A stretch of 32,547 nt of DNA, taken from Jimgerdemannia flammicorona. Taxonomy: Eukaryota. Position 1 is the first letter of the stretch. Each line of letters begins with the position of its first letter. Position numbers and translations under genes: made by a program. Shown piece after piece: positions 2,560-31,311 of this stretch. The DNA lies in assembly GCA_003990765.1 (NCBI GenBank), contig RBNJ01000341.1:1-32547 (forward strand), given 5' to 3'. The notes under the pieces are model-generated. The model saw only the letters and a program-made list of their open reading frames with translations, ran no database searches and was not told the origin of the DNA.

Positions 2560-2900
2560 AAAGAGAAGGATAGTAGTAGAGAAGATAGAGAGGTGAGAAA
2601 GATTAATGCCAGTGAAGAAGTCAGTATTAATAGAGAGGTTAGTAGAGAGATTAGTATAGAAGAGATCAGTATAGAGAATATTAGTATAGGAGAGGTCAGT
2701 ATAAGAGAGATTGATATAGAAGAGGTTGGCATAAAGAAGGTCAGTTTAGAGAAGATCAGTATAAGAGAGATTGGTATAGAGGAGGTTAACATAGAGAAGA
2801 TTAGTATAGAGAAATATAGAAATATCAGTGTAAAGGATAAAATAGAGATTAATACAGAGGAGGTTAGTATAGAGGAGGATATAGAGGAAGAAAATATAGA
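2560..2900. repeat. Decayed ~15-bp purine-rich tandem repeat
   Basis: Units like AGAGAAGATCAGTAT / AGAGGAGGTTAGTAT repeat many times; the repeat is duplicated at 6174-6400. Confidence 0.75.
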
Positions 2901-3040
2901 GAAAAGCAGTTTAAAATATATAAACAAAGATAGTTTAGAATATGAGGAGAAGAAGAATTAGTTAATTTATAGTAATAAAGAGTAAGATCTATTTATAAAG
3001 TTAAGATCAATTTTATATAGAGTATATTCTCTATACTTAT

Positions 3041-6173: not shown

Positions 6174-6536
6174 AGATTAGTATAGGAGAGGTCAGTATGA
6201 GAGAGATTGGTATAGAAGAGGTTGGCATAAAGAAGGTCAGTTTAGAGAAGATCAGTATAAGAAAGATTGGTATAGAGGATGTTAACATAGAGAAGATTAG
6301 TATAGAGAAATATAAAAAGATCAGTGTAAAGGATAAAATAGAGATTAATGCAGAGGAGGTTAGTATAGAGGAGGATATAGAGGAAGAAAATATAGAGAAA
6401 AGCAGTTTAAAATATATAAACAAAGATAGTTTAGAATATGAGGAGAAAAAGAATTAGTTGATTTATAGTCATAAAAAGTAAGATCTATTTATAAAGTTAA
6501 GATCAATTTTATATAGAGTATATTCTCTATACTTAT

Positions 6537-8586: not shown

Positions 8587-10599
8587 TTACAATCCAATTC
8601 TACTTCAAGATACTTTCTCACTCCACTACAAACTCTTCTGAGAATTTCTACAAGTTAGTATTAAGCCCAATCTCTGAACTGGAATTTATTCTGAACTATC
8701 TGATAATCTGGAGAGAATTGAACCTGATATACAAGGACAATTTGATCTCCACATCTACAACAAGTGGAACAAACTTCACTCAAAGAAAGAAGTACTCTGA
8801 TTAAATTAGCAAATAGGCAAAATCCTATTCACCGAACTCCTTGCTCTACACCCAGCAAGTCAGGATGAAGAAGGTCTTATAGAAGCCTTCTTTACTCTTC
8901 TCAATAAGAGTTTTGTTAGCTCTACAAATCCAAGCAACCTAGGACAACCAGTAGCAGTCTTTCTAGCCTTAGTTCCTCATGAAGCCCAAGCCTCTGTAGC
9001 CAAGTAGCTCAACTTTACTGACTTTCACTATACTAAGACCAAGACTGTATTATACTATCAATTCCAGAACAATAAGGCCTGCCATATTCTTAAAGAAAAA
9101 GCAAGGAAAACCCTTCATCAATAATCTGATCCTGAACTAGGAGCAGGCTCAGCTACAGCCCTACCTGAACCAGAAACTAATACTGAACCAGAACTTAACT
9201 TTGAATTAAGTCCATCCAAAATCAGATATACAACTGATTCTGTCTACTTTGATGCCAAGCAAACCCAATTACACAAGGACCAAACTGAAGAGGAGGAGGA
9301 GTATTTCAGTGAATTTGATCCTGGATACACCACTGAAGGAGATATACCTCCATTAGGACAGAATATACTGATACAGCAACAAACAGCTATCTATCGAGCC
9401 CTTACTCCAGACCCACAACTATTACTCCAGCAACTTACACAGACTCAAAAAACACTCTCACACTCTGCATCAGTACCTCAAGTAGTACCAGCAACACCAC
9501 TACCAGCAGTCCAACCACCTCCAGTAAACAATATAGCAAACTAATAGATTCTAGACCTCACAGTCCAGGTAGCCATAATGGCAGCAACTATTACCACCTT
9601 AGCTGAACAGACCTAATCTACCAAAAATCTGAGCCTATCTACCTTCAATAGTACTGCACAAGAAGTCCAAAGCTTTATTAGTATAGTTGATACAAACTTT
9701 GAGACCAATCAATGGACCAATGAGCAAGTTGCTGACTGCCTTCTGACAAACAATCAAGACTACACTCTGGAACAACTCTTTGCTACCACTACAGCCTATA
9801 TCTGCTGAGTTGTTATATTCTTCTGAGGACCTGCCAAAGAATGGTGGCAAACTCTTCCTAAAAAATCCCTCACATGGGATACCTGACCTGCAGTAGTTGC
9901 TCAAAATGCAGCAAACAATGTCCCAGGATATGGAGCCCATCCTGCAGTCCCTGGACTGAAACAACTCATAATTGCCCAATATTGCAGTAAAACCATGATG
10001 CTGAATCTCAAGTAAAACTCTGCAACCTCAAATTTGATATATATGGCAAGGAGGAATTTGAAACCTTCTATACAAAACTTGAATCACTTCTGAATACTGT
10101 TGGCCTAGGATACATTGCTAATGATGAAGTGTGAAATAGTACAAGAGCAGACCATCTATTTGATGCACTGCCTGAATGGCTTACTAGAAAAATCCGAGAA
10201 CAAGACTGCCTAGTTGGTTGCAATCACCAATAATGGTATCTAGTAAGAATCAAGACCATGGTCAAGCAAATTCTAATAGCTGGACCAATTCTGCTCTAAA
10301 GACAATTCAATAACAAAGAAAAGACTTTGACTAAGAAAGAAGAACCCAAGCATGAAGCATCCTGAGCTCCCTCAATATCTACCTCATGGATACTCAGAAA
10401 TCATAAACCTACCCAGCTGAGTATCTTCAAGAAACTCACTGAAGGAGAAAGGAATGAACTTTGAAGAAGTGGAGCATGCTTCTATTGCTGAAAGACAGGA
10501 TACATGGCCAGTACCTGCCCTAACCAAAAATCCCAAACAGCAACATGAGCAACTGTTACTACTCTGCACCACTTCAATAACCTGACTACCAGAACACTG

Positions 10600-11003
10600 G
10601 ACTTTATTAAGTTAAGGCAAACCACTAAGACTCCAACCAAAGGAAGTCAAAAGGCAGTCAGATATAACCTGTATGTAGCTGAAGAAGTTACAGTTTCCAA
10701 CTGAGAAGTTAAGCAAGTCTATACAGAAATCAGCATCCAAATCCCTGAAGGACATGTTGGAAGAATATACTGTCACAGTAGCCTAGCATTGAAAGGACTC
10801 TCAGTAGAAGGAGGAGTCATTGATGAAGATTACATAAGTGAAATTATTGTCCTCATCCAAAACCATAGTTGGATACTCTTCAAGATCCCTATTGGTTTCT
10901 GCATCATTCAGATCCTATTTGAGAAAATTGAGTCAACTCTGATAGTCAAGGAAGTCTCTGAACTACTATCTACTATCTGAGGATCTAAAGGATTTGGCTC
11001 ATC
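10600..11003 (+). pseudogene. dUTPase domain between Gag Zn knuckle and protease
   Basis: IPEGHVGRI..HSSLALKGLSVEGGVIDEDY.SEI...*GSKGFGSS matches trimeric dUTPase motifs II, III and V. Confidence 0.9.
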
Positions 11004-14000
11004 AAACAAGGCCCCAGCCCAACCTACCACAAATAAAGAAGAACAATTCTACAAGAAAATTGAAGATGGATATATACTTAGTGGCTGATGCCCCCAGGTA
11101 TTGGAATGTACTCTTCTTGAATGATCAATGATTGCTTCTCTTATATCAATAAATTGGCTCAAAGAAGAACTAATAGAAGGAAAGCTCTTACAACTGAAAT
11201 CACCACCATTGAATTAGACAAACTACTTACACTTCAAGTCTTTGTCAACTGAGCATCTGTCAAGATTATGATAGACAGCAGTACCTCAGACAACTTCATC
11301 AATGAAGAAACAGCCAACAGACTCAAGGTCTTCACCTCCCCAATACAACAAACTCAAGCAGTTGCTATAGCTAATAGAACCTCACATATTATTAGCAAGG
11401 AAGTCCACAATCTGCCCTTCTGAATTGGTGACTATCAAGTACATGTTACTCTCCAAATTATACCACTTCCTGATAATGAGATTATTCTTGGAACCCTATG
11501 GTTGAAACAAGAGAACCCTATAATTGATTGGGTGAACTATTCTCTGGCCATCAAGAAAGGATGCCACAACTTCAAACTGTAAGGTAAAAAGAAACCACTC
11601 AACTCTAGTGACTCTGGACCAAAGATCACTCATATCAACAAGCTACAACTCAAGAAATTAGTCAAGAAATGCCCTCTCTTTGCCATCTCCATCTGCTCAT
11701 CCAAAGGAGAACCTGAGAACTCTGAAGAAGACTTTTCCAAAGTTGACAGCCATGTCAGACCACTACTCTAGAAATTCCAAGATATATTTCCAAAGAAGCT
11801 TCCAAAAGGTCTATCTCTTAAACAAGTAGTAGACCATGCCATCAAGACTATTTCAGATGCCAAGCCAGCCTTTAAGTCAATCTATCACATGTCTCCAAGA
11901 GAAATCAATATACTCAAGAAAGAAATTGACAAACTCCTAGAATAAGAATTCATCAGACTCAGTATATCACCTTATGGTGCATTAGTCTGCTTTATTGTCA
12001 AGAAAGGAGGAGACTTATAAATGTGTATTAATTACTAAGACCTCAATGAACAAACTATCAAGAACTGTTGCCCACTACCTAGAATCGATGAAATATTTGA
12101 TAGGCTTATCAACCCACAATTCATAAGCTCTTTTGACCTATAAAATGGTTACTGGCAAATTGCTATAAAAGAAGAAGATATCTACAAGACAGTCTTCTGA
12201 ACTTGCTATAGACATTTTGAATTCCTGGTTATACCCTTTGGCTTAACTAATACTCCTGCAACCTTCTAGACTCTAATGAATACTATCCTACACCCATATC
12301 TGGACAAATTTATTGTTGTCTATATTGACAACATCCTAGTCTTCAGCAAAACTCTGGAGAAACATCTTGAACACCTCAAACTAGTACTACTGAAACTCCA
12401 AGAAAACTAACTCTTTGCAAAACTCAGCAAGTATGAATTTCTTCTGAAGGAAATTCAATTCCTTGGACACATTATTATACCAAATGGAATCAAAGTGGAC
12501 TCTAGCAAAATCTCCACAATTAAGGATTGGCCCAGACCCAAGAAGCTGAAAGACCTCCAGTCATTTCTGGGATTAGCAAACTATTACAGATAATTTGTTG
12601 CCAACTTTATCAAAATTGCCACTACTCTCACCCAAATGACCAAGCATAGCAAGAAAGAAGAATAGTCCTGGACTACAAAACAAGAGAAAGACTTCAACAA
12701 TCTTGTAAATTGGGGACCTGAGTAAGATACTGCCTTTTAAGCACTAAAGAATACCTTGATAACCACTCCAGTACTTCAAGTGGCAAACCCTGCCCTACTA
12801 TATAAAGTTACTACTGATGCCTCTGACTTAGCCCTTGGAGCAGTGCTCATACAAGAAGGATACCCTGTGGCCTATCATTCCTGCAAGTTCAATAATGCTG
12901 AAATCAATATGCAATCCATGAGAAGGAAATACTAGCTATTGTAGACACTCTGATAAAATAGCAACCATACTTAGAAGGAGTACACTTCATGGTATTGACT
13001 GACTACAAGTCATTAGTCAACATCAAGACCCAGGCTACTCTTTCCTGAAAGTAAGCCAGATAGATAAAAGTCCTTACCAACTTCGACTATGAAATCCAGT
13101 ATTGCCCTAATAAGAAAAACATTGTTGCTGATGCAATCTCCAGATCACCTATTGAAGAAGTTATCCAAACTCTCACCTTGGTTACCAACACTATCATAGA
13201 ACAAATTATTATAGCATATGTTGATGATAAGAAAGCTCAAGCATTCCAAGAAATCCTGAGCAGTGACAATGCTAACAAGCATATCTGGTACAACCAATAC
13301 CAACTGAAGGACAATACTATCTACTACAAGAACAGATTGTATGTTTCAAATAACCAAGACCTCTGAAAGACTATCCTATTTGAATGTCATGATGCCCCTA
13401 CAGCTGGACATTTAGGATTTGACAAATGCTATGAAGTTATCTCTCAAAACTTCTATTGGCCCCACATGGCAGATCAGCTAAAGACCTACATCACTTCCTG
13501 TAATACCTGCCAACAGAACAAGTCCTCAACATTAGCAAAACCTAACTTACTCCACCCTATCCCAGTACCATCCACTAATTGAAAACAAATCTCTATGGAC
13601 TTCATTATACAACTACCCCGAACCAAGAACAGGAAAGATACAATTGTTGTCTTCATGGACTATCTCAGCAAACAAGCCTACTTTGTACCAACTACCACTA
13701 CCGCAACAGCACCAGACGTAGCTATACTCTTGTTTGACAATATATTCTGCTATCATGGTCTTCCTAAGATCATTATTAGTGATTGAGATCCAAAATTCAC
13801 CAGCTATTTTTGGAAAGCCCTCCATGTATACCTTGGAACAAAACTTGTACTATCTACAGCATTTTACTCTGAAACTGATGGCCAAACTGAAAGAATAAAC
13901 TGAACTCTGGAACAAATGCTAAGGAACTATGTTTCCTACAGACAAGATGATTGGTATGAACACCTCACTACAGTTGAGTTTACCTATAACAACAGCAAGC

Positions 14001-15009
14001 AAGCCTCTCTTGGAATGACTCCATTCTTCACCAATACTGGACAAAATCCAAATACCCCTTTGACACTTATCCAAACTACTGACAAACTCTCCACAGTTGA
14101 AGCTGTTGAAGAATTCCTGCTCTGAATGTACAATCTAAGCCAGATTGCCATTGAGAATTTATCATGAGCTCAAGAACAACAGTTATAGTATGTTAACCAA
14201 CACTGCTGAGAAGAAACTTTTGACATTGGAGAAAAAGTTCTACTAGACATCCAAGGATATTGAGTTGATAACCTCAAGCACAGACTATCTACAAAGCTGA
14301 ACAGTAAGTTTATTGGACTATTTGAAGTTATTTCACAAGTCTTTAATATCTAACATCTCAAGCAATATAATGAAAATGATGACAAGCTATTCCAAAACTG
14401 GACAACTGAACCACCTACACCTGTCACTATTAATGACCAAGAAGAATATGAAGTTGAACAAATTCTCAACAAACATGGCAATAAGAACCACCCTGAGTAC
14501 CTTATCAAATAGAAAGGTTACCCAATCCATGATGCAATATGGGAACCCAAGACCAATCTCCAGAATGTCAGGAATATGATTCCTTGAACAACTAAAAAAG
14601 AATATCTAACACCTATCAGTATATACTATATATTACCCTCCCAAACATTATAATTATTACAAACAAAATTAAGAACTCAGCAAGTCAAGACAAAAGAATA
14701 CCAACTCTCTAGAAAAACAGCAAAACTGAAAGCAAGCCTATTCTCCCCATATCACTGGTGGGAAATGAGATGTAGATATTTAAGAAGATTCCTTAGAGGA
14801 AATTCTCCAGCAGTAAATAATGTCAGAATTACTTCCAGTGCACAGCATCGAACACACAACTCTTTAACATATGAATCCAATATATTAGGTAACCATACTA
14901 TAAGCATGTCACTTTTTGAGAAAAATGGACTTTACCAGACTTTTGACCTCCCAAATTGTGTAACAATATTAGAACAAATTAGAAGGCCCTGACAAGAATG
15001 TTAAAAGCT

Positions 15010-15022
15010 AAGAAGGGGAGAG
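15010..15022 (+). other. Polypurine tract
   Basis: AAGAAGGGGAGAG immediately before the 3' LTR. Confidence 0.85.
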
Positions 15023-15023
15023 T

Positions 15024-17102
15024 TATAAGTGCATAACTCCCAAGCTACTGAAATCACACATCACCCTCTGAACAAGTCACTGAAATCACATGCAACCTTT
15101 GAACAAATCTGGAAATCACCTGTAAGATTATGAAGCTGAGTCAAACCAAAGTTACAGTATATAAAGCTGAGTTAATATAAAGTCACAGAACATAAGATTT
15201 ACATAAACAGAATCTTACCAATCAAGACCAAATATATATATACCAAGTACCAAGACATGTCGAAACAGAGAACCAAAACAAACAACAACTACAACTTCTG
15301 AACATACACAAACATGACCACTGAGATCTATAACTGCATCCATACTAACATTTGGAATACCATTGTCAACCAAGCCACACCCCCTCTGCCCCTCATGAAT
15401 ATCCATAGTCTAGCACCCCTCTACTTTATGGAAGTCCAATGAAATACCCTGAACATACTTAGCAAAGCTTACCAAATCAGACAAATCTCAAGCTACTACC
15501 AAATCAGCCACCTCCTAGAAGACATGGTTGAATATTACTATAATACAGACATCACTCAGATGTCTCAACATTAGAAACTTATTATCTGCAAATATTGAGA
15601 ACTCTTCTATGAGTATAGTACCTTTATCTCCCACCTTCGAGTTATTATTACTGAAATGGTTGCTACCCTATCTTATGGTCAAATCGATGACATGATATAA
15701 AAACACAATCACAAGTACCTCAAGTATGTTCAGACTATAGACAGAACCTTTCTGCACTCCAATGACCATATCTTACAAATGCCTCAAGTTGGATATGCTA
15801 TGAAGGATATCTATAATATAATCTGGTTTGATGAAGACAAAGCAGAAGATAATAATCTCTCTGATGCCAACATGACCTCCAGCCAAGAATCTCTACCAAC
15901 TCTGATCACACCACCAACCTTGCTGATGAACTTGTAATAGTTCATAATCACTTACAAGACCTACTGGGACAATGACCACTGGCATGAATATTAACCCACA
16001 TTTACCCTCGATTACTTTAACTACAATGAAGAGACCAGAGAACACAACCTGTACCTCCAGACAACTCTTGAGATTGAACCAACCACTCCACCACCTGAGT
16101 ATGAGTGATATGAGCCATAGCTACCAGCTTACTACAACTCTGCAACTCATAGTACTATAACCTATAGAAGATACACAGACAGTAAATCTAATAAAAGTGA
16201 AGATGATGCACCCCTCCTTTATCCATCAATATGTATCTTATCCAGCATATGAGACAGATGATGCTATTCTGTGGGACAGTGATGAAGTTCCAATATATTA
16301 TTACCTCAGTGAACAAGGAGAAATAATCTGTAAGCTACTCTTCCTAGATGACTACTTCATCAAAGATGATGTCATTAATGGTGATATCATCAAAGACTAC
16401 CCAGATAGTGTCTAAACCTATAAATAGCTTAGCAGTCATAGTATAGTTAGATTAGCCTTATATGACATGACTGTAAACTGACTCAGTAGCCAGATGATCT
16501 CTTAACATATCAGATCACACTTGTACTATGTGACTACATTCTGACTTAGTAAGGCACTAAGTGCTACATCCATATCTAGCATAGTTCAGATAACCCCTTA
16601 CTAGTATAAATACCCCCTCCTCCAGACCTCAGAATCTCAGACTTGAACAGACTCGAATACACAAGAACAATCCTGAATACTTTCCTACAATATCTCTTTA
16701 CACAACTACTTCTAGTATAGTAATATTATAAATAGCGAATAAATCTATTTAATAACCCACAAACTACTCTTAAGTAAATCTACTCCCTGTTAGGTCTCAC
16801 TTCTAACTCCATCATGAAATTTCCTAATTGGGTATTATCTGCAAAAATATGTCAATTCAACTAAGCTGGTCTTAGTTTCTTGAACTTTCTGAAATATAGA
16901 AAATCCTGAATATTCAGAACTAGTCTGAAAAAGGACTTTGATTGAGATGTTAACTTAATCTTGAAATCAATAAGCATAGAGAATGTACTTTATATGAAAT
17001 TAATCTTGACCTTAAGAAAACAGTCTTCCAGAATATCCAGAACTTCCAGAAAATCCTTCCAGAACTATATAATAGTTACCCTAAAAAGTAAACCTTCTTA
17101 CA
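15024..17102 (+). repeat. 3' LTR of family-1 element
   Basis: TATAAGTGCA (decayed TG) ... CTTACA; colinear with the 5' LTR; followed by the TSD. Confidence 0.92.
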
Positions 17103-17227
17103 CTTATTGATTTTAAGATTAGATTAATATCTTAACTAAAGTTCTTTTTTGGACTTATTCTAGATATTCAGAATTTTCTATATTTTAGAAAGTTTAAAAA
17201 ACTAAGACCAGCTTAGTTAAATTGGCA
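17103..17227 (-). mobile_element. Old antisense family-1 LTR fragment (insertion target; other half at ~6494-6536)
   Basis: Matches 4239-4363 of the antisense solo LTR, while the sequence just before 6537 matches ~4200-4243. Confidence 0.8.
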
Positions 17228-17253
17228 TTACTAACTGAATATTTTAAGTACAG

Positions 17254-18784
17254 ATTTTGGCCATTATGACAGACAATGCCACAAATAACTCAATATTTTT
17301 CCAAGTTTTAGCAGTCAGTCTCAAATAGGAAAATGTGGCCTTTGGTGCAGAAAGCTGCCATGTATGATATCAGACCCATGTACTGAACCTTGCTATTCAG
17401 AACTATCTTATGCACATAGACAAAACATCTGAGAGAGGAGGGGCTCTGAGTATAATTTCCAAGCTATACAAACTAGTTATATCAGTCTGATTGTCTCTAT
17501 AATGATGAGACAAATTTGCTACATAGTATAGGGTAATTATTTTAGCCCCAAAAGAGCTTATATTGGATATCTGTATGTATTGAAACTTAACATTTGTAAT
17601 GATCTAGTATGTGCTGGAGTTTGCTGTGGTATGCATTCTTTTTTTCTTCAGTTGGCTGAAGCAACTTATTTTGGATGATTGAAGATTTATTTTTAAAAAA
17701 AAAAAAAACAAAAAAAGCTAATAGATTCAACAGTGGCTGCTGATAAAGAAATATGGGCCAAGGCTCTAGGTGAAAGTGAGTGAGACATACTTAGGAATAT
17801 TGTCAGAGTTTTGAAAGTAAGTGGTAATTGCTCTGGCTCCACACTCATTTTGTCTACCTCTACACTCATTTTGTCTGCCTCTGCATAATACAATACCTCA
17901 CCACATATAACTGTCAGTGTTTTGATGATTGTATGAAGGATATAGTCAAACAAATGACTCTGACAATAAGCTCTGCAATATCAGTATACAACCTTTTGAT
18001 TGACCAGCTAGAGGACAAGCTCAAGGATAGGCTGGAGAGTTGTAGTAATTTATAGTTAAGCCCAGATCAGAGAGATGCTGTTGAGGTTGCTCTAAGCAAG
18101 CTCAGAAAATACTACTCCCAAACAAATACTGTTATATACTCAATCAGTACAGATATGTTGATATTGGTATGTAGCTATTACCCCTTTAAAAATAGAGAAA
18201 CCCCTGCAAAAACTCACTCTCCTTTTCTTCAAATAGTGTTGGACCCATGCTTAAAGCTACAATACCATAAAGGTCAGAGCTAAGAGTAGTATTTTATTGA
18301 GAGAACCAAGTAAGCTATAATTGAAGTATACTGGAAATTCCAGCTGAAGTCCAGATGAATATGCTGAGAGATCTCTTCTGTTCCACATTTACTTCAGCAG
18401 ATAGAAGAAGAGGGAGTCATTAGTGGAAGAGCTGCTATCAATAGAAAAACTTATCATTTACCTTGCCAGTAACTGCATGATCCTACTGGAGGGCATGGAG
18501 GTACTCAACTGGTGGAAGGTAGGTTGTCAAGCAGACATTGGGCCAATTTAACCCATCAATCTAACTACTGCTCTACCTACTGGAGTATGTAGCTATATCA
18601 AATGGACTTCTCCAGCCTATATGATATGGCTCAGGACTACCTGGTAATTCCTACCTCCAGCACTCCTGTTGAGTGGGTGTTCTTAGGTAAGGTGGACCTC
18701 ATTGCTCCAAAGAGATATATACTGAATGCTGAGACAATCCAGGCATATATGTGTCTGAAGTCTTGGTGGGGCTTGGGCCACTAA
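17254..18784 (+). pseudogene. hAT-superfamily transposase, 5'-truncated, intron-containing, decayed
   Basis: ILAIMTDNATNN; HV*YQTHVLNLAIQ (decayed RCxAHxxNL); LILDICMY*NLT (decayed DVxTRWNST); SKLRKYY; VLDPCLKL; VLNWWK; dimerisation domain MAQDYLVIPTSSTPVEWVF...ETIQAYMCLKSW. Confidence 0.9.
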
Positions 18785-18939
18785 AATTTGACAGGTCCTG
18801 GGGATTTGCAGATAAGTTGATTGGCCTTGTGGAGTATTTAATACCTTTCAAAAATAATAAAAAGGGAAAAAAAACCTGAGGACTTAGCTCAGAATTTATA
18901 GCCCAAGTGGGGTAGTAGTTGGTGGAGTTGACAGCAGTA

Positions 18940-19565
18940 GTAGAGGGAGTGCACAATATTTACAGCTCTCTGCCAGCAGCAAGAGACAGTTCCAAGCTAT
19001 CAGTGCCTGGGTTGGTGGGTGGGTCAGTGGGTGGGCATGGGGTTAGCAGAGAGAGCATGCAAAATTTGCAACCCTCTATTGGTAGCAAGGAGCAGCCCTA
19101 AGCTGCAAGTGTCTGGATCAGAGGGGTTAGTGGAGGGGAGGGGTAGACAGAGGGGGGGGATAGGCAGAGAGAGTATGTAAAATTTGCAGTCCTTCACCAG
19201 CAGTAAGGGGCAGCCCCAAACTATTAGTGCTTGGGTCAGTGAGCAGGATTAGTTGGCAGAGTTGGTAAATGTAGGGTTGGTAGAGAGAGTGTGGCCCTCT
19301 GCTAGTAGCAAGGGATAACCCCAAGCTGTAAGTATTTGAGATAGACAGGGCAGGCAGAGAGAGTGTGCAAAATTTGCAGCCCTCTACCAGCAATATAAGG
19401 ACAGCTCTAAGCCACCAAGAAGTCCAGAGCAGAGGGTGCTTCTAGTGGTCAGAGGGTGCTTTTGGCAGTCAGAGAGTATTTCTAATAGTCAGAGGGTACT
19501 TCCAGCAGTCAAAGTCTATTACAGATCTGGGCCCCATCACTGGTTTGGGTCCCATGAGCACCCTG
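18940..19565 (+). repeat. hAT 3' subterminal repeats and candidate terminus
   Basis: GAGAGTGTGCAAAATTTGCAGCCCTCT-like motif at ~18944, 19049, 19167 and 19357; four 20-bp AGAGGGTGCTTCyrGyrGTC units at 19431-19510; ends GAGCACCCTG (reverse complement CAGGG, hAT-like). Confidence 0.55.
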
Positions 19566-19679
19566 GTTCTGTGCTGCAGCACTGCACTAGTAGTACTATA
19601 GAGCAGGGCCAAGGGGCCAGTAGAGCCCTGCATAATGGCTAAGCTAGTACTACAGAAGAGGTGCCTGGTCCAACCCTCT

Positions 19680-22221
19680 ATATAAGACTGCCCAACCTAT
19701 ACAAAATAACTATCTAACTCTCACAAAAGATTGCTTAATTCTCATGAAAGATTGTCTAACTCTTACAAAAACTGCTCCACCTGCCAATCTCAGGCCTTGA
19801 TGAGCCTATCATCTGTTATGAGTATGATAACTATTGTATCTGAGCTCTCCTCAAAGACAATAGTATCATGGTGGTTATGTGGTTAGAATAGGACAGCTGT
19901 GTTGGCCACAAACAGAATCCCAAAACTATAGGTAAGGTCATATCAGACTTCACTGCTATCCTCCCAAGTTGGGCCCTTCCTTTTCAGGATGTAAAACATT
20001 ACTGAGGTGACATTGTTATCTGTGTGTGTGGGTAGAGAAACATTATGCCTGATATATCCTAATGTAATATGAGTGTACAGTTGGGTGAACCCTTGGCTCA
20101 GGACCTCATACTACCAGACTATGCTAATAGATACCTACCCTTGGTTCAGCCCTAGGAGCCCCAGCTTAGAAACCTGTCAAAATGGATAGCAACTGGTTAG
20201 TCCTTTTTACATGTGGGGGGGCAGAAACCCCTCAGGCTACAGAAACCCTCTGGGCTGTAGTACCCAAAAAAGCAGACCTCCTCACCTCATATGGTATGCT
20301 AAATTGTACCAAGAATGTATATATAGCTGCACTGAGATCACTACTAAGCTGGTCTACTGTACATTCTACCAATCTGCTCAAAGAACCCCAGATCATAGCT
20401 GCCATCACTGCATAGGCCATGTTGTGCTCATGTACAGTTTGCTCTTTGACAGTACTTCTAAAGTTTCAGTAGGGGTACAGAATCTTGTGTATCTCTAGAA
20501 TTGTATCAAAAAGAGTATATTAGCAAAGAATGTGATTTATCTGAAGAGGAGTAAAAAAAAAAGAGAGACAAGTGCAGAGGATTTCAGAACTCTAGAACCC
20601 ACCCTTCACTAGTATTGCAGTATACCCAATTCCTGTCCAAACCCCCCCTTCTTGCTTTTTTTGCCCCCTCTTTCCTGCCACCCAGTATTTGATACAATCC
20701 TCACAAATCTCATTAATGTGGTGGCAAAGCTTGTCACTGTAGAGGTTCTTTACCACCATTGCAACCACCTCTCCATATTTTTTAATAATGATATAGTTCT
20801 CTTCATCATTGGTTACTCCTGCTGGCCAATAGACCCCTTGGTCAAGAATGATTGGCTCTGATTCAAATATAGACTCCCAAGCCTTGATAATAATGCTGAT
20901 ACTACTTATGCTGAACATCTTGCCCTTAAATTTCTCTATTTGATCAGATGCTGGATGTAGTTGAACTCAGGTAACTTTGAACTCTCCTTTCCAATAGAAC
21001 TGAGCCCTAATCTGAGGGACCAAGATAAGTATTTGGACAGGTTACATGTGGACAGATTGTATGCAGATGAATTGTATATAGACAGATTACATGCAGATGG
21101 ATTGCATGCAGATGGATTGTATGTGGGTGAGTTGTATGTGGATGAGTTGTATGTAGGTGTAGGTATTTTTTAGGGGGAGACTACATAAAAAATGAAATTA
21201 AATAAAACATAGAGATAGGTATTTCAGAAAAAGAGTATGAGTGAGTGAGTGAGTGAGCTGCATACTGGTGAGTTACATACCAATGAGTTACATGAGTTGC
21301 ATAAGATTGCTCATGAAGGCTTACTTCTGTTCCTTTTGAGACCTCCACCATATGATACATTGACTCAACAGCTCAGTCACCAAAGGCATACTCTGCAATA
21401 TCTGCCAGCCTTTCTTCATCTTGACCAGATGTTGTGAATAAAGTCAGCAGATCTTGCTGTAGAGCTGTGGACCCTAAGAAAAGTACAAGGTAAATTGGGT
21501 TGTACTGGGGAAATTTAAATAAACACAAGTAAATAAATGGTGGCCAAGTGAGCAACCTACATCTACTATCAGCTGCTCCAAAAAGGCTGCTGTGTACATA
21601 GCTGTGAGATCTGTGAATTCTGAGATCTGATGGATCACCATGAGTTGTTGCTGGAATTCTCTCTCATCCCTGCTATCAACTACCATTACTACTGCTATTG
21701 CCACTGCTATCATCATCACCATCACTACTGCCATTGCCACCACTATCACTCCTTTGACTCTTGATGAGCAGCTTGTGTGCTGCCCATATAAGAAAGAATC
21801 TAACATTGTCAGCAGAGAGTGTGTTTCCACCTTGAATACTCCCTCTTTTGATGATCATTGCAGGGTGAAAAATGAGTAGACTGGACTAATATATGAATTA
21901 AGGACTGCTGTTTTATTTACTTATGATGCAGTAGGAAAGAACAAAGAAAAGAACAAAAGAAGAGAGAGAACAAAAGAAAAGAGTGATGTCACTAAAGTGT
22001 GATAGGAAAAAAAAAAACAAGAGCAAAATGAACAAAAGAAAGGGTGATGTTATTATCAAAGATTTCAATCCAGATGAATCAATCCAGATGGATCAATCTG
22101 GATGGATCAATCTGAATCAATCTGAATCAATCTGGATCAGATTATGAGACTAATCTAAGTTGATTCAAATTCATCACATAATGAATCTTATCTGGATTAA
22201 CTCCATCTATTTGGAGCACTA
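19680..22221 (-). mobile_element. Old, CpG-decayed copy of a cargo-carrying DNA transposon (one terminus at 22221; other end not located)
   Basis: ~21030-22221 is the reverse complement of 31312-32547. Homology stops exactly at GGAGCACTA, and the flank is an unrelated LTR fragment. Decayed ATCCGG subterminal repeats at 22060-22200. Confidence 0.8.
19763..21924 (-). pseudogene. Multi-exon transposon cargo gene, putative TET/JBP-like 2OG-Fe(II) dioxygenase; reliable exons 21011-20603, 20494-20286, 20173-19763; 5' exons ~21924-21561 and ~21473-21320 less certain
   Basis: Phase-consistent GT-AG introns with CTAA branch sites. Last exon reads LYTHITLGYIRHNVSLPTHTDNNVTSVMFYI...WEDSSEV*Y...GILFVANTAVLF*PHNHHDT...TIVIILIT, i.e. 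HxD (20018-20026) and a distal His ~50 aa later (19868-19873). Confidence 0.6.
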
Positions 22222-23160
22222 AGTATAAGTGTAAACTGATATATCAAGAGATTATCTGGCTACTGAGTCAGTATACAGTTATATAATATGAGACTAATCT
22301 AACTATACTAATAATTGCTAAGCTATCTATAGATTTAAATACTATTTGGGTAGTCTTTTGATGAGATCATTATTGATGATATCATCTTTGATTAAGTTTG
22401 AGCAGTTTTCTAACTTCTGATATCATCAGTTTCAAAGATATTATCACATCTGCCTCTTGTAAAATTAGAACTATTCTTAGTAAAGATGATTGTATAGGAA
22501 TAGTAGGTCTTAGTTCTCTTTTTTTTTTAGACTATTGGTATATTTGTGAGAACTAACCATTCTTGTCTAGGGTAAGAGCTCTCATTGTTATAGCTGGGGG
22601 TTTGAACCTCTTGAAAATGATATTTTCTATAATCTGAGGTAATTTCTAGTAGTAATATCTGTTATATAGATAGACTTAAGATTGGTTTCAACAATATCAG
22701 CTTTCTTGAGTTTCAGATAAAATATCTATTATTCTCCAATAGAGGTAATATAGATAGAGTGAATAGAGTTATTTAAATATATTTTACTTCTATTAGTAAT
22801 AAGATCTTATATAGTTATAGTGTATCTTAGTCTTAAGTATAAGTATGGTTTATGAATCTTTAATAAATGAGATAGGGTTCTTCTTATTTCAGTTTGAGTT
22901 TTGATACTTTAGTTTTCTTTTATAATAGTATAGTATATCAAGACTAGTTGTCTAATAAGTAGAGGTTCAAAGTCAGTTATATGATCATAGTATTTTTTTT
23001 AGCATTCTTATATCTTGGCAATAAATCCTCATACTTATTGGTATACTTTGTATAATCAGATAATCTCTTCAGTAACTCATTTTGTGATCTTATATATAGT
23101 TTTTAAATTTATTCTAAGAATGATATATAATTTCAGTAGTTTGAAGATTATATGCTTATA
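22222..23160 (-). mobile_element. Old antisense LTR fragment related to family 1
   Basis: 22222-22395 aligns by eye with 4676-4848 (TATCAAGAGAT..CTGAGTCAG..CTAATCTAACTATACTA..GGGTAGTC). The rest is diverged and the right boundary is approximate. Confidence 0.55.
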
Positions 23161-23164
23161 CATA

Positions 23165-23345
23165 TAATCTGAATCACTCAATCTGAATTACTTAATTCAA
23201 ACTACTCAATCCAAATCACTCAATCTAAATTACTCAATCTAAATAATCATTCAATCTGAATTACTTAATCTAAATTATTCAATTTGAATTATCTCATTCA
23301 AATCATCTAATCTGAATCCATTAATTCAAAATTTTCAATTCAAAT
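23165..23345. repeat. Decayed ~13-bp tandem repeat (ATCTGAATCACTCA-like)
   Basis: More than ten imperfect units; resembles fully deaminated ATCCGG-type subterminal repeats. Confidence 0.6.
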
Positions 23346-23369
23346 TCTCTATATAACTCATATACTAGA

Positions 23370-23497
23370 TACATTTATACAAATATATATACACATAAAT
23401 ACATATGTATATAAATACATATATATGCAAATATACATATATGCAAACACACATATATATATAAATATATATATAAATATATAAATATAAATATATT
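23370..23497. repeat. (AT/AC)n degenerate microsatellite
   Basis: ATATATACACATAAATACATATGTATAT... low-complexity tract. Confidence 0.7.
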
Positions 23498-24181
23498 AAC
23501 AGATCAGTCTTTAATAGTTCATAATACTGATGATACTTCAAGTTAAATATCCTCAATAGTTCCATACTTTCTATGTAATCCTTACTCTGAAATCTGACAA
23601 CATTGTGCTAAGATTGAAGATAATATTATTTATAATTATTGTAGATAAAAAATTAAAAAAATAAGATGTATTTATGATATAACTAATACTTTTGTTTAAT
23701 ATACACATAATGTTATTTCTATTAACCTCTATATATGATATAGCCAGAAGTTCAAAATATTTAGTGAGTTAACTTCAAACATATACATATCAATATATAA
23801 AAGACAAATACTCTGACAAATCAAGAAGAATACAAAAACAAATAAAATTGATATTCAAGCTATAGTAGATATATTTATCTGATTGTCTGACCAATTCTAT
23901 ATCAATAATCAAAAATATTTAGTCATATTTTTCAGTAGAATTTTGAAATCAACTTATTTACTAGATTGTATATATAGATCAATTATTCACAACTATTGAG
24001 AGTAACCAGTTGTATAGCATCTTTGGTCTCCTTAAGTATGATTTATATCTGCTAAATACCAATACTATTTACAAAGATATCCTAGAGATCTATAGAAAAA
24101 AATATAATAATCTACCAGATACTTCAGATAAAATAAATAAATAAGAACAACACTATGACCATTGCAAGTTTAATTATATAT

Positions 24182-25564
24182 TGTAACAGTGACCCCAGAA
24201 TGATGACATCAGCATAGGAGACAGCCTTTTTTTACAAGCCACCAGATCGGAGTACAAGAAGATCATATGGCATACGAGATGAGCAATGATGACCAACTGT
24301 AAGTCATTGTGACCACAGCACAAGCATCCTGAAGAATATAAAAGAAGGACCAAGGAACTGCAGTAGCAGCAACTAACAAGAACTACCAATCTCAAAATAG
24401 CTCAAAGACTTACCACAAACAAAATGCCTGCTGCCTGCCAAACCTCAAGGTCAAGAAATTACCAAGGTATCTCGGTCAAGGAAAGGATGTTCCAAGACAT
24501 CAGAAGAGCCATGAGGACCTGCTCAAGAAGGACTCCTAGCATCAACCTGGGTACTACAGACCCCTATCACTTCATTTTCTACTGCCACGAAATGGAAACA
24601 AGGATCACTATTGCCACCGAATGCCTCCAAATGTGGCAGGAGTATGAAATAGGAAACCTCCTCTGCTGGGAGTTCCCACAGACCAGCCCTCAAGAGCTAC
24701 AAGATGCCACTCCCATGGACCTACGTGAGGCAAGGATAGCAAAGAAGATCCATCAGATCTTCAGGCATGCACCATGGTTGATCCCCAACTTGGAGTATGT
24801 TAGAGTCTCAGACTTCAGAGACCTGTCATCCTGCTGTATCAATGCACTAGAAGCCAGGGTAGCTACAGAAGCCCAGTCCACCATCACCCTCAATAGTAAA
24901 GAAGTAGAAGACTTCTGGCACCCTATCCTTCAGGACAACCCAGACCAATTTCTACAAGGATTGATCTCAGTATTCCAAGGCCCAAGCATCCAGGTCAGAT
25001 CTCCTCAAGAGCTCACATTTGTTCCTTATTTTGTGAAAGAGAACCTCATAGACTGGAGAGCTTCAGATCTTGTCCCCGATTTCCCCACCAAACATGATAA
25101 CGTCATCGGTGATGATGTCATCCTGCGCGACATACCACGCGAAGTACATGAAATACATGGCAATGAAGTACGTGAGACATGCAGCCTGCATGACGAATTT
25201 GTGGACCTCATCTCCTTCAGTGATGATGATGATGAAGCTCCCATGGTCCTGAACTTTCTGCTCTAAGTTCTTTGTTATACTGGATAATGCCAGCACTGGT
25301 ATTCTCATATAACACTGGATAATGCCAGCCCTGGAACTTAGTAGTTTTAGTTATTGGAATTTATATTTAGCTTTATATCTTAGCAACCATTGAATTATAT
25401 TTTATATAAATACCTCTCTTATTTCCTCTGAAATAAAGTCAGTCAAGTTCACTTACACACACTTCCTTGCAAGCAATCTAAGAAATAACAAGACAGTTAA
25501 AGATAAGAAGTTTGAGGACTATAAGATCTTAAGAAGGCACTCCAATAAGAACTTGCTTATAACA
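24182..25564 (+). repeat. Probable 5' LTR of family 2 (3' boundary uncertain)
   Basis: TG start; TATATAAATACC at ~25403-25414; AATAAA at 25432; candidate end TTATAACA. No second LTR is available to confirm, and no clear PBS. Confidence 0.55.
24424..25266 (+). CDS. Intact 280-aa LTR-region accessory ORF, homologous to the family-1 LTR ORF; function unknown
   Basis: ATG-to-TAA open frame upstream of the TATA box; shares YEIGNLL and IAKK..QIF.....LIPNL..........LS...IN pattern with the family-1 LTR ORF. Confidence 0.7.
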   Translation: MPAACQTSRSRNYQGISVKERMFQDIRRAMRTCSRRTPSINLGTTDPYHFIFYCHEMETRITIATECLQMWQEYEIGNLLCWEFPQTSPQELQDATPMDLREARIAKKIHQIFRHAPWLIPNLEYVRVSDFRDLSSCCINALEARVATEAQSTITLNSKEVEDFWHPILQDNPDQFLQGLISVFQGPSIQVRSPQELTFVPYFVKENLIDWRASDLVPDFPTKHDNVIGDDVILRDIPREVHEIHGNEVRETCSLHDEFVDLISFSDDDDEAPMVLNFLL

Positions 25565-25759
25565 ACTTGAGTTAGTCTAAGAGATACACCTTGAAGAGAA
25601 TCTGGCATATTTGAAGGACTCAATGGCCACTACATGACAACTTGGTGCCTATTGGCTGGTGATTCAAGATAAATCCCTCACTTTCAAGCTAAAAAATGAA
25701 CAACCCCACAACAACTACCCTGACTACAAGAGTCACCCCCTGCAAGAATTTAAGATAAG

Positions 25760-28700
25760 ATGGAAATGCATCCCCCTATATTCTATAGATATACTACTGA
25801 AGAGTCAATCCTGACCTTCATTGAAGACTTTGAACAATTTGCCACCATATGAGCCCTTGGTGTGGATGCTCAATTGGCCCTTCTATTAGTCAGCCTCAGA
25901 GGACCTGCCAGAGACAAGTTCAATGCAGCCACCATTGCTGATACTGGTACAGCCAAACTTACCAATATGAAGGCCTTCCTCAGAACAACATATTATATCA
26001 AAGAGATCAAGCAAGCTCTTAAGGATCAACTCAATACTATCTGCCAGGGACTTAGTGAAGATCCCAACTCATTCTATACCTGAATTTACCACCAGATTGT
26101 CTTGGCTGGCTATGATGATCACCTCAAAGAACAAATAGCAGATTCAACCTTCCTCAAAGGAGTTCACTCTGAAATTGCTCTAGCAATCTGGTCTACCTCA
26201 GCTGTACTGACCCTTGATCAGAAAGTGGTCTTTGCACAGAGATATTGGACTGCCAGACACCTTGCCAAACTCTCAATGGAGAAAATAACTGGCATCAAGA
26301 TGGAGCCATCAAAGCTAACTAGTATCTTACCTACCATAGTTGTAAACAGACAACCAATCCCACCTACCCCCAAGACAGCCAAAGCTGACCCAGTGGAAGA
26401 ACTTGTCAAGCAGTTCACTGAGATGACTGCACACCTTGGTGATGTTGTTAGAGAAGTCTGAAGCATCAACAGGAGACCAGTGCAGAGATTTGCAGCTGCT
26501 ACAGAAGAACACAATAACATCACATGCTTCAGATGTAAAGAAGAAGGCCACTATGCAAAGAATTGCATGACTGAAACAAGACGCAAAGCCCAACCAAGCA
26601 ATGCTAGCAGAACCAGAGAACAAACCAATACAGTAGTCATTGAGGAGATTGGTGACACTGATGATGAAGAGTATTACGAGGAGCTCGAATTCTACCCTGC
26701 TACTGAAGGTACCAGAACCTGGTCCAAGCCCTATGACAAGAAGAGCAACAGCAAGCCAGTTGGAAGACCAAAAAAGACTCCAGCTGTCACTATTCAAAGC
26801 AAGACCCAACATGAGGAGATTGATCAAGACATGGAGTTAGATGAGGCTGCCCACCAAATCATCGAAGGTACTACTCCAGTCTCAGGAGAAAGCAAGAGCA
26901 AGAAGGAACAGAAGCTGCGCAAGACCAAGATCCACCAGTATGACATCTACAAGGACCTCAAGGAACAGAAGATCAATGCCACTTTTGGGCAGCTAGCTGA
27001 AGTCCCTGCCTTCAGACAGCAGTTGAGAGTAGGACTTACAACTACTGTCAAGAATCAAGAGTATAAGATTGTAGAAGTTCACAATGCACAAGAAGAATCT
27101 GAGAACTCAGGTGAAGAATCTGAAGACCAGCACAAGACATCAGCCTATACCCCCTGCCAGATTGAAGACTGTATCTTTGATGCCATCATTGATACTGGTG
27201 CTGGAGGATGCCTCATGAGCAAGAAAGCAATTGACTACCTAGGTTGGGACATTGAAGAGTCCACCAAAATGGTCTATGTCACAGCAGACGGTATACAAGC
27301 TACCCCTCTTGACAAAATCCGAGAAGTCTCCATCAAGATAGGAGGAGCTACCATCCCAGTAGATGTGATTGTTACAAGCACCACCAACTATAACATCCTC
27401 ATCAGCAACCAATGGCTTCACAAGGCCAAGGCCATCATTGACCTCAATGCCCAGAAGATGCAGATCAACTACAGAGGAAGAAAGGTATGAGTTTCTATCA
27501 ATGTCCACAAAGGAGTCCTGCCAGACATGGAGGAAGGAGATGAAGAAGACACAGAGGTCTTCATGCACTTGGTGAACAAGAATAAGAACAAGACACCCAA
27601 GCTCACAGATGAGCAGTGGTATAACAAGATCATCGATGGGTATGCCCCTCAAGGAAGATGCCCCCATGGTACTAGAATGTACTGCTCTGAACACCTGAAT
27701 GACTACTGATCCTGTATCAGTGAAGTCAGGAAAATCTGCCAACAAAAATATGAGCAAGAAGCTGCTGAAGCAAAAAGGAAAACTGAAGAAGATGACCAGC
27801 CCCCAGAGCTTCAAGCTGACAGTGATAATGAGGAGGAACAAGAACCAGACATCACTCTCAAGGTCAAGAAGTTTCACCCTGAAGCCAAGATCCCCGAATA
27901 CAAGACTGAAGGAGCCATAGGAATGGATCTTGCCAGCATCCAAGATGCTACTCTCGAACCACAGACCACTACCCTACTTGGCACTGGAATTGGAGTCAAG
28001 TTGCCAGAAAACCACACCAGAATTATCAAGACCAGGAGCAGTCTGACCAAAAGCAAAATCTCAGTTGAAGGAGGAGTAATTGACCCTGATTACACTGGTG
28101 AGATTTTTCTCATAGTCAGAAATCACAACCACACCACTCCCTTCGAAGTCAAGAAGTATAACAGGATTGGCCAGATGCTGATCCACGAAATCAAGAAGCC
28201 CAAGATCATAGAGGCCACTGAGCTTATCAAGACCAAGAGAGAAGAACAAGGCTTTGGATCTACTGGAAGAGGAGCCTATGCTGCCACCAAGATTACTGAA
28301 CTTGAGCACAAGAAATACAAGGACCAGAGCAAGCACATATATACTATTGGAGAAAACTTTCCCTTAGAGGAACAACTTCTCAAGATCCTGTACTAGAACA
28401 AAGGAGTACTTACTACAGACTTTAGGGATATCCATAATCAAGAACCCAAGTACCACCATGAAGTTGACACTGGTGATACCAAGCCTATCTACCAGAAAGC
28501 CAGACCCATACCACCTGCCTACAGAGAGTGGCTGCGAGCCAAACTCAAGGAAATGGAAGAAGCTGGAATCATCAAGCAAGCTATCAGCCCCTGGGCCTCA
28601 CCCATTGTCCTTGCTCCGAAGAAAGGAAGCAAGCCTGGAGAGTTTGCACCAAGACTCTGCATTGACTACAGGAAACTCAATGCCATCACCAAGAAGGATA

Positions 28701-29788
28701 GGCAGCTCTTGCCAAATATTCAAGAAATCCTTACCACTCTTGGAAGTGAAGCCAAATACTACACCACCTTGGATCTGTTCTCAGGCTTCCATCAGATCAG
28801 TCTCACTCAAGATGCCAGTGAGAAATCAGTCTTCATCACACCTGATGCCACCTACATCTATCTGTAAATGCCATTTGGAATGTGCAATGCCCCAGCAAGT
28901 TTCCAGTGAATGATGAACAGAGTCTTCAGCAATGAGATTGGAAAATGGCTCTTTATCTATGTTGATGATGTGATCATCTTCAGCAATACTGCACAGGAAC
29001 ATATCAATCACATACAGCTAGCCCTCAAGAGGCTCAAGGAGCATGGCCTCTACATCAAGCCCAAGAAATGCAAGTTTGCAGCTCAAGAAATCACCTACCT
29101 AGGACACCTCATCAACTAGACTGGAATCCACACAGACCCTATAAAGATCAAGACTGTTGCAGCCTACCCAAGACCCAGAACAACCACAGAAGTCCATGCC
29201 TTCCTTGGACTGGCCAGCTACTACAGAAGATTTATCAAAGGATACTCCAACATTACAGCACCTATCTATGAGCTACTGAAGAAGCAGACCAAATTCGAAT
29301 GGACCAAGGAGTGCCAAGAAATCTTCAATGAACTCAAGACCAGGTTGACCCAAGCACCCATCCTCAGAAGACCAGACTGGAACCTAGAATTCATCCTGCA
29401 GACAGACACGAGTGCTATAGGACTTGGAGCAGTCCTAGCTCAGAAGAAAGATGGACATGAATATGTCATCTCCTATACAAGCCGAGATACCTGCAGAGCA
29501 GAACAGAACTATGAGTCATGCAAGCTTGAATGCTTAGTGGTAGTTTGGGCAGTAGATAAGTTCCACTACTACCTAGCTGAAAAACACTTCACCATTCAGA
29601 CAGACCATTCCACTCTTGCCTGGCTATTCCACACTCTGAACCCCAAAGGAATATATACCAGATAGATCTACAGGCTGCAAGAATATGATTATACTATCAA
29701 GCACTGCCCAGGAAAGACCAACACCAATGCTGATGTACTCTCAAGGATACCCCAAAACATCCCCATCAAGACTATTCAACATGAATAA
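25760..29788 (+). pseudogene. gag-PR-dUTPase-RT-RNaseH polyprotein in a single frame with about ten premature stops
   Basis: MEMHPPIF..; CFRCKEEGHYAKNC; IIDTGAG; dUTPase 27857-28267 (GMDLAS, RSSL, GGVIDPDYTGEI, GFGSTG); SPWASPIV, RLCIDYRKLN, LDLFSGFHQI, YVDDVII; LQTDTSAIGLGAVL, TDHSTL, NADVLSR. All ORF-track pieces share one frame. Confidence 0.94.
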
Positions 29789-31028
29789 GGAGCTATACTA
29801 TAGATTAATCAGCTATCTTGGGCAGCGGAAGATGCCCAACCACCTCGAACCCTGAACAATCACCATTATCAACTGGACTTAGAAACAGTTTGAATTAGAC
29901 AACACTACACTCAGAAAAGGAGGAAAGCTAGTAATACCTGAATATAAGAAATATCAAGTAATGAAGGAAGTACATGAGCAAGGACACTTAGGAGGAACTA
30001 ACACATATGATAAGACAAAAAGAACCATGTGGTGGCCCAAGATGGAAGAAGACCTGTGCCAATTTATCAAAGGGTGTGACAAGTGCCAAAAACAGAAACA
30101 AGATCAGCAAGACCAGGCACTCGGATCATCAAGAATTGAGCCTATCCCCTTCCACCACATCGCAATGGATATCATTGGACCACTACCAGTAACACTATCA
30201 GGAAACCACTATATTATAGTTATTGTAGACCTCTTCACCAAATGGATAGAGGCAGGAGCATTACAAGAAGCCAATGCCCTCTCTATAGCCAATTTCCTAC
30301 ACTGAGAAATCATCTACCACTACAAGACACCAAAGCAAATCACAACAGACCGTGGTACAGAATTTGTCAATGGATTCCATAAGATAATATACCAGAAATA
30401 CAAGATCCAGCACATCAAGACCACTGCATACCACCCTCAAGGAAATGGACAGACAGAGAGAACCAACAAGACCCTCAAGAACATCCTAGCAAAGATCTCA
30501 GAGACATATGAGAATTGGGATAACTATCTCCCAACTGCCCTCTCTGTTCTATGAGACATATGATCACAGAGCACACATTTTATCCCAAGAGAGCTGCTCT
30601 TTGGAGAAGAAGATTCTAATGGAACCTCAGCCACAAATCTAGATCTAACTTGGAGACAGATTGATGTAGAAATCCGGAGACTACACCAAATCAGGAAGAA
30701 GGCTGAAGATTACATCACCAAGTTACAAGTACTGATAAGAAAGAATGCAGAAAAGAATCACAAGGTCCTAGAATCCATCTGAATTGGAGAAAAGGTTCTA
30801 CTATATCGAAATATGGTAGAAGCCTCATAGTCACGAAAACTGGAGCCCAAATGGGAAGGACCCTTCTACATGCAAGATATCAAGAGAACTATCTTCTGGC
30901 TTAGAAAAATCTCAGGGACCATACTGCCTACCACGGTACATAGGAACAGACTCAAGAAGTACCACAAACCTATACAAGAGAAGCAAAACATGATGACCAC
31001 CCATGAGGTTCTAGTCTATGAATCGTAA
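29781..31028 (+). pseudogene. Integrase in a separate reading frame with its own ATG
   Basis: MNKELYYRLISYL...HEQGHLG...CDKCQK...AMDIIGPLP...TDRGTEF...AYHPQGNGQTERTN...KLEPKWEGPF...VHRNRLKKY; 416 codons with a few stops; no chromodomain. Confidence 0.9.
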
Positions 31029-31311
31029 CAGCATGTCCCATGACCAGCAGGCTATCTGTCTAGACCATTCTCTAAGGGATACGACACTGGCAACTACTTA
31101 TCCGTGAAGACTTTCGCAGTCAGAGGAGTTCGAACCGTCAACTGATTGGTCAAGATCAGAATCAGGCCCTTGCTCTATATAAAGGGAGCGACCCTTCACC
31201 ATCACGCCAAAATACAAAGAGAAGACACCAGCCCATAAACACCAGTTTTCGACCTCTTGTCAGAGGTTATGGGATCAGCAAATTTTTCAGGACTGGACTA
31301 ATGAATAAGGA

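Follow-up and report, generated by a model that had tools for sequence, protein, structure and literature searches.

Does a degraded DNA transposon in the genome of Jimgerdemannia flammicorona carry a gene for an enzyme that could act on DNA methylation, and if so, where do gene and carrier come from? A transposon equipped with a demethylase-like enzyme of its own would amount to a counter-defense against genome silencing. The stretch of DNA analyzed here (the window) is 32,547 nucleotides (nt) long and covers positions 1 to 32,547 of contig RBNJ01000341.1 (assembly GCA_003990765.1), forward strand. A first-pass annotation, made from the letters alone, had described at 19763 to 22221 a DNA transposon with a spliced gene for a TET/JBP-like dioxygenase that depends on 2-oxoglutarate (2OG) and Fe(II). 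On balance, we consider it probable that a cut-and-paste DNA transposon, now dead and with all of its CpGs deaminated, occupies 19763 to 22221, and probably the whole of 17229 to 22221. Its spliced cargo gene would code for divergent kin of the transposon-borne TET/JBP-like Fe(II) dioxygenases of fungi. The copy in the window is a wreck, and its value lies in directing attention to copies that are intact in other parts of the genome and to a family missed by the standard profiles.

A three-exon gene family inside a repeated element

The gene and the boundary of the element that contains it are defined by the following features. The copy at 19763 to 22221 is referred to as copy 1, and ORF stands for open reading frame.

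20603 to 21011, minus strand: exon 1 (409 nt), predicted N-terminal strands and a helix, with the blocks NYIII, GEVVAMVVKN and GGVWTGIGYT and one in-frame TGA
20286 to 20494, minus strand: exon 2 (209 nt), helical middle part, one TGA
19763 to 20173, minus strand: exon 3 (411 nt), beta-rich core with HTD, the second His and a GG that has decayed; interrupted by five stops before the final one
21373 to 21858, minus strand: upstream ORFs, with an ATG at 21858 (363 nt inside the terminus), broken in copy 1; putative part of the dioxygenase transcript
22201 to 22221, minus strand: terminus of the element, reading TAGTGCTCC... inward
22222 to 22397, minus strand: outer flank, a fragment of a long terminal repeat (LTR) retroelement that was the insertion target of copy 1
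31312 to 32547, plus strand: copy 2, inverted relative to copy 1 and cut by the end of the window before exon 1

Joined on the minus strand (21011-20603, 20494-20286 and 20173-19763), the exons give 1,029 nt, divisible by 3, or 343 codons. Both introns, of 108 nt (GTGGGT..CTAG) and 112 nt (GTGAGG..ACAG), are of the GT..AG type and keep a consistent phase. Stops interrupt the spliced reading at codons 15, 146, 219, 227, 283, 303 and 334, with the final one at codon 343. The three minus-strand exons of 409, 209 and 411 nt in consistent phase, as proposed in the first-pass annotation, were thus reproduced by slicing and translation, and the peptide strings quoted there are present in the window translations. 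The upstream ORFs matched no Pfam family; in copy 2 they form one open frame of 223 amino acids (aa).

The three exons represent a real gene family and not chance ORFs. When the stop-free exon-1 ORF was compared by phmmer with 1.84 billion cluster representatives, three proteins appeared at E ≤ 0.001, two of which (P0002, E 1.2e-18, and P0004, E 4.5e-4) are short fragments that both end at the exon-1 boundary. The third (P0003, 2,113 aa, E 2.2e-4), a repeat protein with 21 residues aligned around YWPAGV, was set aside as spurious. A profile built on exon 3 recovered seven proteins below the threshold of E ≤ 0.01 (E values from 4.9e-70 to 3.9e-23) among 47 candidates, and P0009 aligns with exon 3 of the window without gaps at 66% identity (86/131, E 3e-65). 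A scan of metagenomes confirmed two loci, L001 and L002, among 119 pattern-matched stretches. In L001, positions 895 to 1182 match exon 1 (tblastn, 1e-11) and an ORF at 1230 to 1478 is the counterpart of exon 2. All three exons are intact there, and removal of the introns (86 and 82 nt) leaves a 318-aa ORF with no internal stop, 24% identical to the spliced reading of the window over 277 columns in a pairwise alignment. Intron 1 splits a codon at the identical alignment column in L001 and the window, and intron 2 lies within one residue and in phase 0 in both. By tblastx, exons 1 and 3 are the only matches between them; the second gene and the upstream exons of L001 have no counterpart in the window. 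Multiple copies and decay are seen among the relatives as well: L002 matches L001 at 99% identity over 2,717 nt but contains stops, and changes of the types R>Q/W, D>N and H>Y occur in P0007, P0010 and P0011. This is a small, multi-copy, eukaryotic gene family whose last three exons encode a domain of about 320 to 340 aa. A word-indexed search for longer relatives of exon 1 found none, either by single sequence or by profile, and the exon-3 profile had no match among genome contigs and viral contigs.

The exons were also said to lie within a repeated element similar to a DNA transposon, and two copies with an exact common boundary support this. The terminal 21 nt (TAGTGCTCC plus 12 more bases) occur twice in the window (22201-22221, minus, and 31312-31332, plus), compared with 0.01 occurrences expected, and the alignment of the two copies begins exactly at TAGTGCTCC, with 84% identity (949/1,131). 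The DNA outside the terminus, 22222 to 22397, is 84.7% identical over 176 nt to 16354-16527 (reversed, E 8e-46) and also matches 4676-4849 and 7822-7995. An uninterrupted copy of the retroelement reads through the corresponding point (16527/16528), where the homology of the flank stops at the terminus. The TAGTGCTCC end is a true repeat boundary because of these two independent lines, the start of the second copy and the break in the retroelement flank.

The stops in the reading frame show a pattern of decay. Where exon 3 has its five internal stops, P0009 has Q, Q, W, Q and W, and opposite the stop of exon 2 there is an Arg in L001 (YPY-stop-NF versus TPYRNF). A single C>T or G>A change separates each of the six from the residue of the relative. 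There is not a single CpG in 17001 to 24000, versus an observed/expected (o/e) CpG ratio of about 1.0 in the neighboring housekeeping gene, which bears out the earlier view that this genome erodes its repeats at CpG. Copy 2, with CpG o/e of 0.67 to 0.85, is less decayed. None of its 51 CpGs is kept in copy 1, where 14 are now TG, 29 CA and 8 something else, and C>T or G>A changes make up 144 of the 182 differences that separate the copies.

Probable kinship with transposon-borne Tet-like dioxygenases

Exon 3 codes for the HxD...H layout that had been reported for it, i.e., HTD followed by a His 52 residues after the first (hand count on intact P0009). The motif around the second His is HHDT in the window copy versus LHGT in the relative. 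The GG doublet suspected of having decayed was correctly guessed, since P0009 has SGGIW where the window has SSEV and a stop. The metal triad is retained in the relatives (HTD..LHGT in P0009, HVD..VHGT in L001) and is lost only in visibly decayed members. Judging from sequence, the family is likely a homologue of the Tet-like domains borne by transposons. A lead in this direction came from a language-model look-alike search of the ESM Atlas, which, by the tool's own text, is a lead and not a test. With L001 exon 3 as the query, the top clusters scored 0.97, 0.93 and 0.91, all eukaryotic and mostly from Basidiomycota. At rank 4 (0.91, 178 shared features), 72% of the members carry PF20515 (Tet-like 2OG-Fe(II) oxygenase), at rank 7 (0.89) 31% carry PF12851 (Tet_JBP), and all ten of the best hits having a family fall in one family or clan. 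For the exon-1 ORF of the window, the matches were bacterial families of no relevance, at 0.87, too low a score to count as a lead.

A full-text literature search on the capture of TET dioxygenases by DNA transposons or hAT elements returned nothing besides Kojima 2025 (PMC12730594), and what follows refers to the sections of that paper and of its supplement that were compared. TET/JBP genes are described there in seven DNA-transposon lineages of rusts, belonging to hAT and six other superfamilies and including 20 TET+ hAT7 families in six Puccinia species, and also on the Kyakuja and Zisupton elements of mushrooms; the cargo is proposed to let them escape methylation-based silencing (PMC12730594). 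Neither the anti-silencing idea nor the pairing of hAT with TET/JBP, which the first-pass annotation had called unusual, is therefore original to this locus. The catalogue published so far comprises rusts, mushrooms and truffles/morels, and an additional lineage invisible to profiles would reveal gaps in it and mean that surveys relying on Pfam undercount such cargo. Potentially new in the present case are a lineage outside the listed sequences, an HxD motif on a scaffold like that of the PE type, and the hAT element that may carry it.

The family was compared by eye, without a score, with the sequences of Table S1 in the sections considered, and the supplement as a whole was searched by words. 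It is most likely closest to the PE type, found in Pezizomycetes and Agaricales and characterized by HxE in place of HxD (PMC12730594). Several blocks are common to both, in the same order: NYI-hydrophobic, GE[IV]VAMV.[RK]N, [IV]NEI, GY[ST]A, H.[DE], a GG about 24 residues after the first His, YG[IF]R...AN[ST]...P.D[FL]HGT and T..RL[IV]K. The distance from His to His is 51 in a Morchella sequence and 52 in the window family (hand count), and both groups are nearly invisible to profile searches and borne by DNA transposons. They differ in the metal motif, HxE in the PE type versus HTD or HVD here. The family also resembles the PU type (Puccinia hAT7), which has HxD, an N-terminal strand, a GG.MW.IGW block similar to GGVWTGIGY, VHGT at the second His in some members, and the combination of a hAT-superfamily carrier with TET/JBP-like cargo. 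However, the stretch from HxD to GG is 34 residues in the PU type and 23 here (hand count), most PU sequences have the Arg in [ST]R[LI]G, and the hAT7 ends are CAACGG or CAGCGA with a target-site duplication (TSD) of 7 bp. The AG type and CcTET (Kyakuja, Zisupton) share with the present case an expansion of TET/JBP tied to DNA transposons in repeat-methylating fungi, but no block likeness was seen by eye in the sections compared beyond HxD...H, and the transposase family is another one. An expansion of fungal TET/JBP genes linked to Kyakuja/Zisupton transposons had reportedly been noted earlier by Iyer et al. (2014). CMD1 of Chlamydomonas, as it is described in PMC12730594, may share the lack of the usual 2OG-holding Arg, although it is a host gene and not transposon cargo. 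Six preselected four-letter words of the family had seven hits in the searched supplement, versus one hit for the reversed words, and five of the seven (HTDN twice, LHGT three times) fall on homologous metal-site motifs.

Read inward from its TAGTGCTCC end, the element carries the spliced cargo gene. If this kinship holds, the protein of an active copy would bind Fe(II) through His-x-Asp and the His 52 residues later, and would oxidize the methyl group of 5-methylcytosine (5mC), or another base mark, on the DNA of the element. Such oxidation would counter methylation-based silencing and the C-to-T decay that ensues.

Several results weigh against the interpretation as a divergent TET/JBP-like cargo. 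The exons were tested one at a time in the family and fold searches, which halves the score. The Pfam search for Tet_JBP and 2OG-FeII domains that had been suggested along with the annotation was run in this way on the exons of the window and of L001 and on P0001, P0002, P0004, P0005 to P0007 and P0009. No family matched any of them at E ≤ 10, with PF12851 and PF20515 both absent. Searches of PDB sequences, with a single sequence and with two profiles, retrieved no TET, JBP or CMD1 chain and only chance matches (VgrG/effector, E 0.48; designed proteins, E 0.35). PHROGs yielded only noise (E ≥ 0.036). Two AlphaFold2 runs of exon 3, on nine-sequence alignments, gave mostly strands at a pLDDT (predicted local distance difference test) of 37.1 and 37.2, and Foldseek on the first of these models found nothing at E ≤ 0.001, only jelly-roll noise. 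The Arg expected before the last strand is missing throughout the family (T in the window and P0009, Q in L001), so that the caveat raised in the first-pass annotation about a Thr at this position was correct and extends to the intact relatives. In P0005, a cluster of 28 member sequences and the largest in the L001 subfamily, Asn takes the place of the metal-binding Asp (HVN instead of HVD), and many copies of this relative are probably inactive. The block comparison was unscored, and seven family words of five to seven letters had no hit in Table S1 (PMC12730594), so that none of the types listed in it is closely related to the family. Copy 1 lost every CpG, and thus the cargo gave it no long-term protection.

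Taken together, membership in TET/JBP remains likely on the look-alikes of the Atlas and the collinearity with PE and PU seen by eye, while the part of the claim that concerns a family or fold match was not borne out by any hidden Markov model or structural hit. The searches that failed would fit equally a gene that is real and transposon-borne but encodes another beta-rich protein, its HxD...H and motif likeness being coincidental or distantly cupin-like. The silence of Pfam, PHROGs and PDB, the unusable models and the absent Arg all go in this direction, and so does a remark in the Atlas text that one third of shuffled proteins also score ten of ten hits in one clan. We nevertheless regard this as unlikely, given Atlas scores of 0.91 to 0.97 with 178 to 221 shared features and seven collinear blocks with a spacing nearly identical to that of the PE type (by eye). 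The PE-type proteins themselves are nearly invisible to HHpred, with CMD1 as their best match at an e-value of 1.4, and yet their predicted structure matches CMD1, NgTET and CcTET (PMC12730594), which makes the negative profile results obtained here less damaging.

A related question is what a Tet-like enzyme of this family would do. Because the Arg that usually binds 2OG is lacking family-wide, the chemistry may be different, and the protein could use a co-substrate other than 2OG or write a mark instead of erasing one, as does CMD1, which depends on vitamin C and attaches a glyceryl group to 5mC (PMC12730594). CMD1 is moreover the best HHpred match of the PE type, for which Kojima 2025 leaves other activities open (PMC12730594). 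On the other hand, some PU and PE sequences in the sections compared also have K, H or Q at the Arg position. In this superfamily, 2OG can be held by other residues. A different chemistry thus appears improbable to us, even more so than an unrelated beta-rich fold. The boldest version of the preferred reading makes the family a fourth, hitherto undescribed lineage of transposon-borne Tet-like dioxygenases, a sister of PE that keeps HxD, lacks the Arg family-wide, rides on hAT, occurs in a fungal lineage outside the three surveyed classes and maybe uses another co-substrate; this combination is a rather remote prospect.

The carrier of the gene

The features that bear on the nature of the carrier lie on both sides of the gene.

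17229 to 18784, plus strand: hAT transposase remnant, 5'-truncated and decayed, in convergent orientation to the dioxygenase-like gene; a candidate for the transposase of the element
18880 to 19500, no strand assigned: internal repeats (repeat family D5), with a 44-nt core in four copies 106 to 190 nt apart, located between hAT remnant and gene
22062 to 22197, minus strand: subterminal short direct repeats in units of about 14 nt, GATTGATCCAGAT-like (repeat family D3; inverted pairs I5, I9 and I10 between the copies)

The sole significant part of the remnant is PF05699 (Dimer_Tnp_hAT) at 18593-18784 (E 3.6e-9); its other pieces, which had no Pfam match, show the hAT motifs TDNATNN and HVLNLA by eye. 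The 5' third of the transposase is absent, and the left edge abuts an inverted piece of retroelement at 17103-17228. In addition, 321 nt of the reversed retroelement copy (the equivalent of 16528-16848) are missing between 17229 and 22221, which implies an insertion followed by deletion or rearrangement on the left side. The ends of hAT elements follow the consensus YARNG, and the end of this element, TAGTG, fits it. On this end and on the adjacent remnant rests the view that a hAT element carries the gene, which is plausible and, in our judgment, somewhat favored. The window contains only one end of each copy, and no second terminal inverted repeat (TIR) or TSD was found in it.

These same circumstances leave room for a carrier of another kind. 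The remnant and the dioxygenase element could be two transposons that came to abut after a nested insertion and a deletion, with the TAGTG end belonging to another superfamily. The rearranged left side, with its inverted retroelement piece and the missing 321 nt, and the want of a second TIR or TSD in the window are what such a history would leave, and the 3.7 kb of L001 contain the gene and no transposase. In the published material compared, TET+ hAT7 ends start with CAACGG or CAGCGA and not with TAGTGC, and hAT is not among the carriers of the PE type (PMC12730594). Against this stand the fit of the end to the hAT pattern, the orientation of the remnant, which points toward the TAGTG end, the lack of any other element boundary seen between 18784 and 19763, and the complete absence of CpG from both remnant and gene. 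We see the two-transposon explanation as possible but doubtful, and hAT as the better candidate for the carrier.

Other identities were tried for the end. A TA target duplication of the PHISTA- or ESTA-like kind was rejected, as the uninterrupted target is ACTATGTG and the junction ACT+TAGTG has one base in surplus. A CACTA/EnSpm end was discarded also, since the terminus reads TAGTG inward and not CACTA. Among the consensus sequences of Table S1 whose 5' ends were compared, none begins with TAGTGCTCC (PMC12730594). The subterminal array is longer in copy 2, and a 61-column gap of copy 1 in the alignment falls within it. No TIRs were found within L001 or L002. Near the end of its contig (3501-3613), L001 has an array of short GATTTGATTTGA-like repeats, reminiscent of the subterminal repeats of the window element, and at 2200-3400, downstream of the intact dioxygenase-like gene, it contains a second multi-exon gene without a Pfam family.

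Neighboring repeats and genes

At the junction of the retroelement and the hAT remnant there is a head-to-head palindrome (16849-17228), with arms at 16849-16974 and 17103-17228 that are 84% complementary. On the other side of copy 1, next to its target retroelement fragment, 22400 to 24000 is very AT-rich (GC content, 21 to 28%) and holds a tandem array of 14-nt units (23144-23345) and an AT/AC-rich, microsatellite-like array (23361-23514).

Base composition separates the repeats from the housekeeping gene mentioned above, a member of the pyridoxal-dependent decarboxylase family (1 to 2000; PF00282, E 6.1e-7 on 270-668). Its GC content is 52 to 55% and its CpG o/e is about 1.0, versus 0 to 0.25 in the repeats from about position 2000. 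CpGs left over in the repeats (2001 to 31300) are in TCG/CGA in 99 of 180 strand-symmetric counts, and CTG and CAG are over-represented 1.9-fold and 1.6-fold in the same interval. The pattern within the window suggests that CCG/CGG sites decay fastest in its repeats. It differs in this from the TCG-targeted hypermutation that the sections of Kojima 2025 considered here report for Pucciniomycotina (PMC12730594).

Two LTR retroelements (9000-17105 and 24367-31200) have a dUTPase domain between protease and reverse transcriptase (PF00692, E 1.2e-16 at 10705-10980 and E 8.4e-27 at 27710-28396, respectively). Both also carry zinc knuckle, protease, reverse transcriptase, RNase H and integrase domains. 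Finally, a purine-rich tandem repeat with a strong GC skew is present in two copies (2521-2961 and 6137-6457) and reads in one frame as an EISIE/KISIEK-like peptide repeat.

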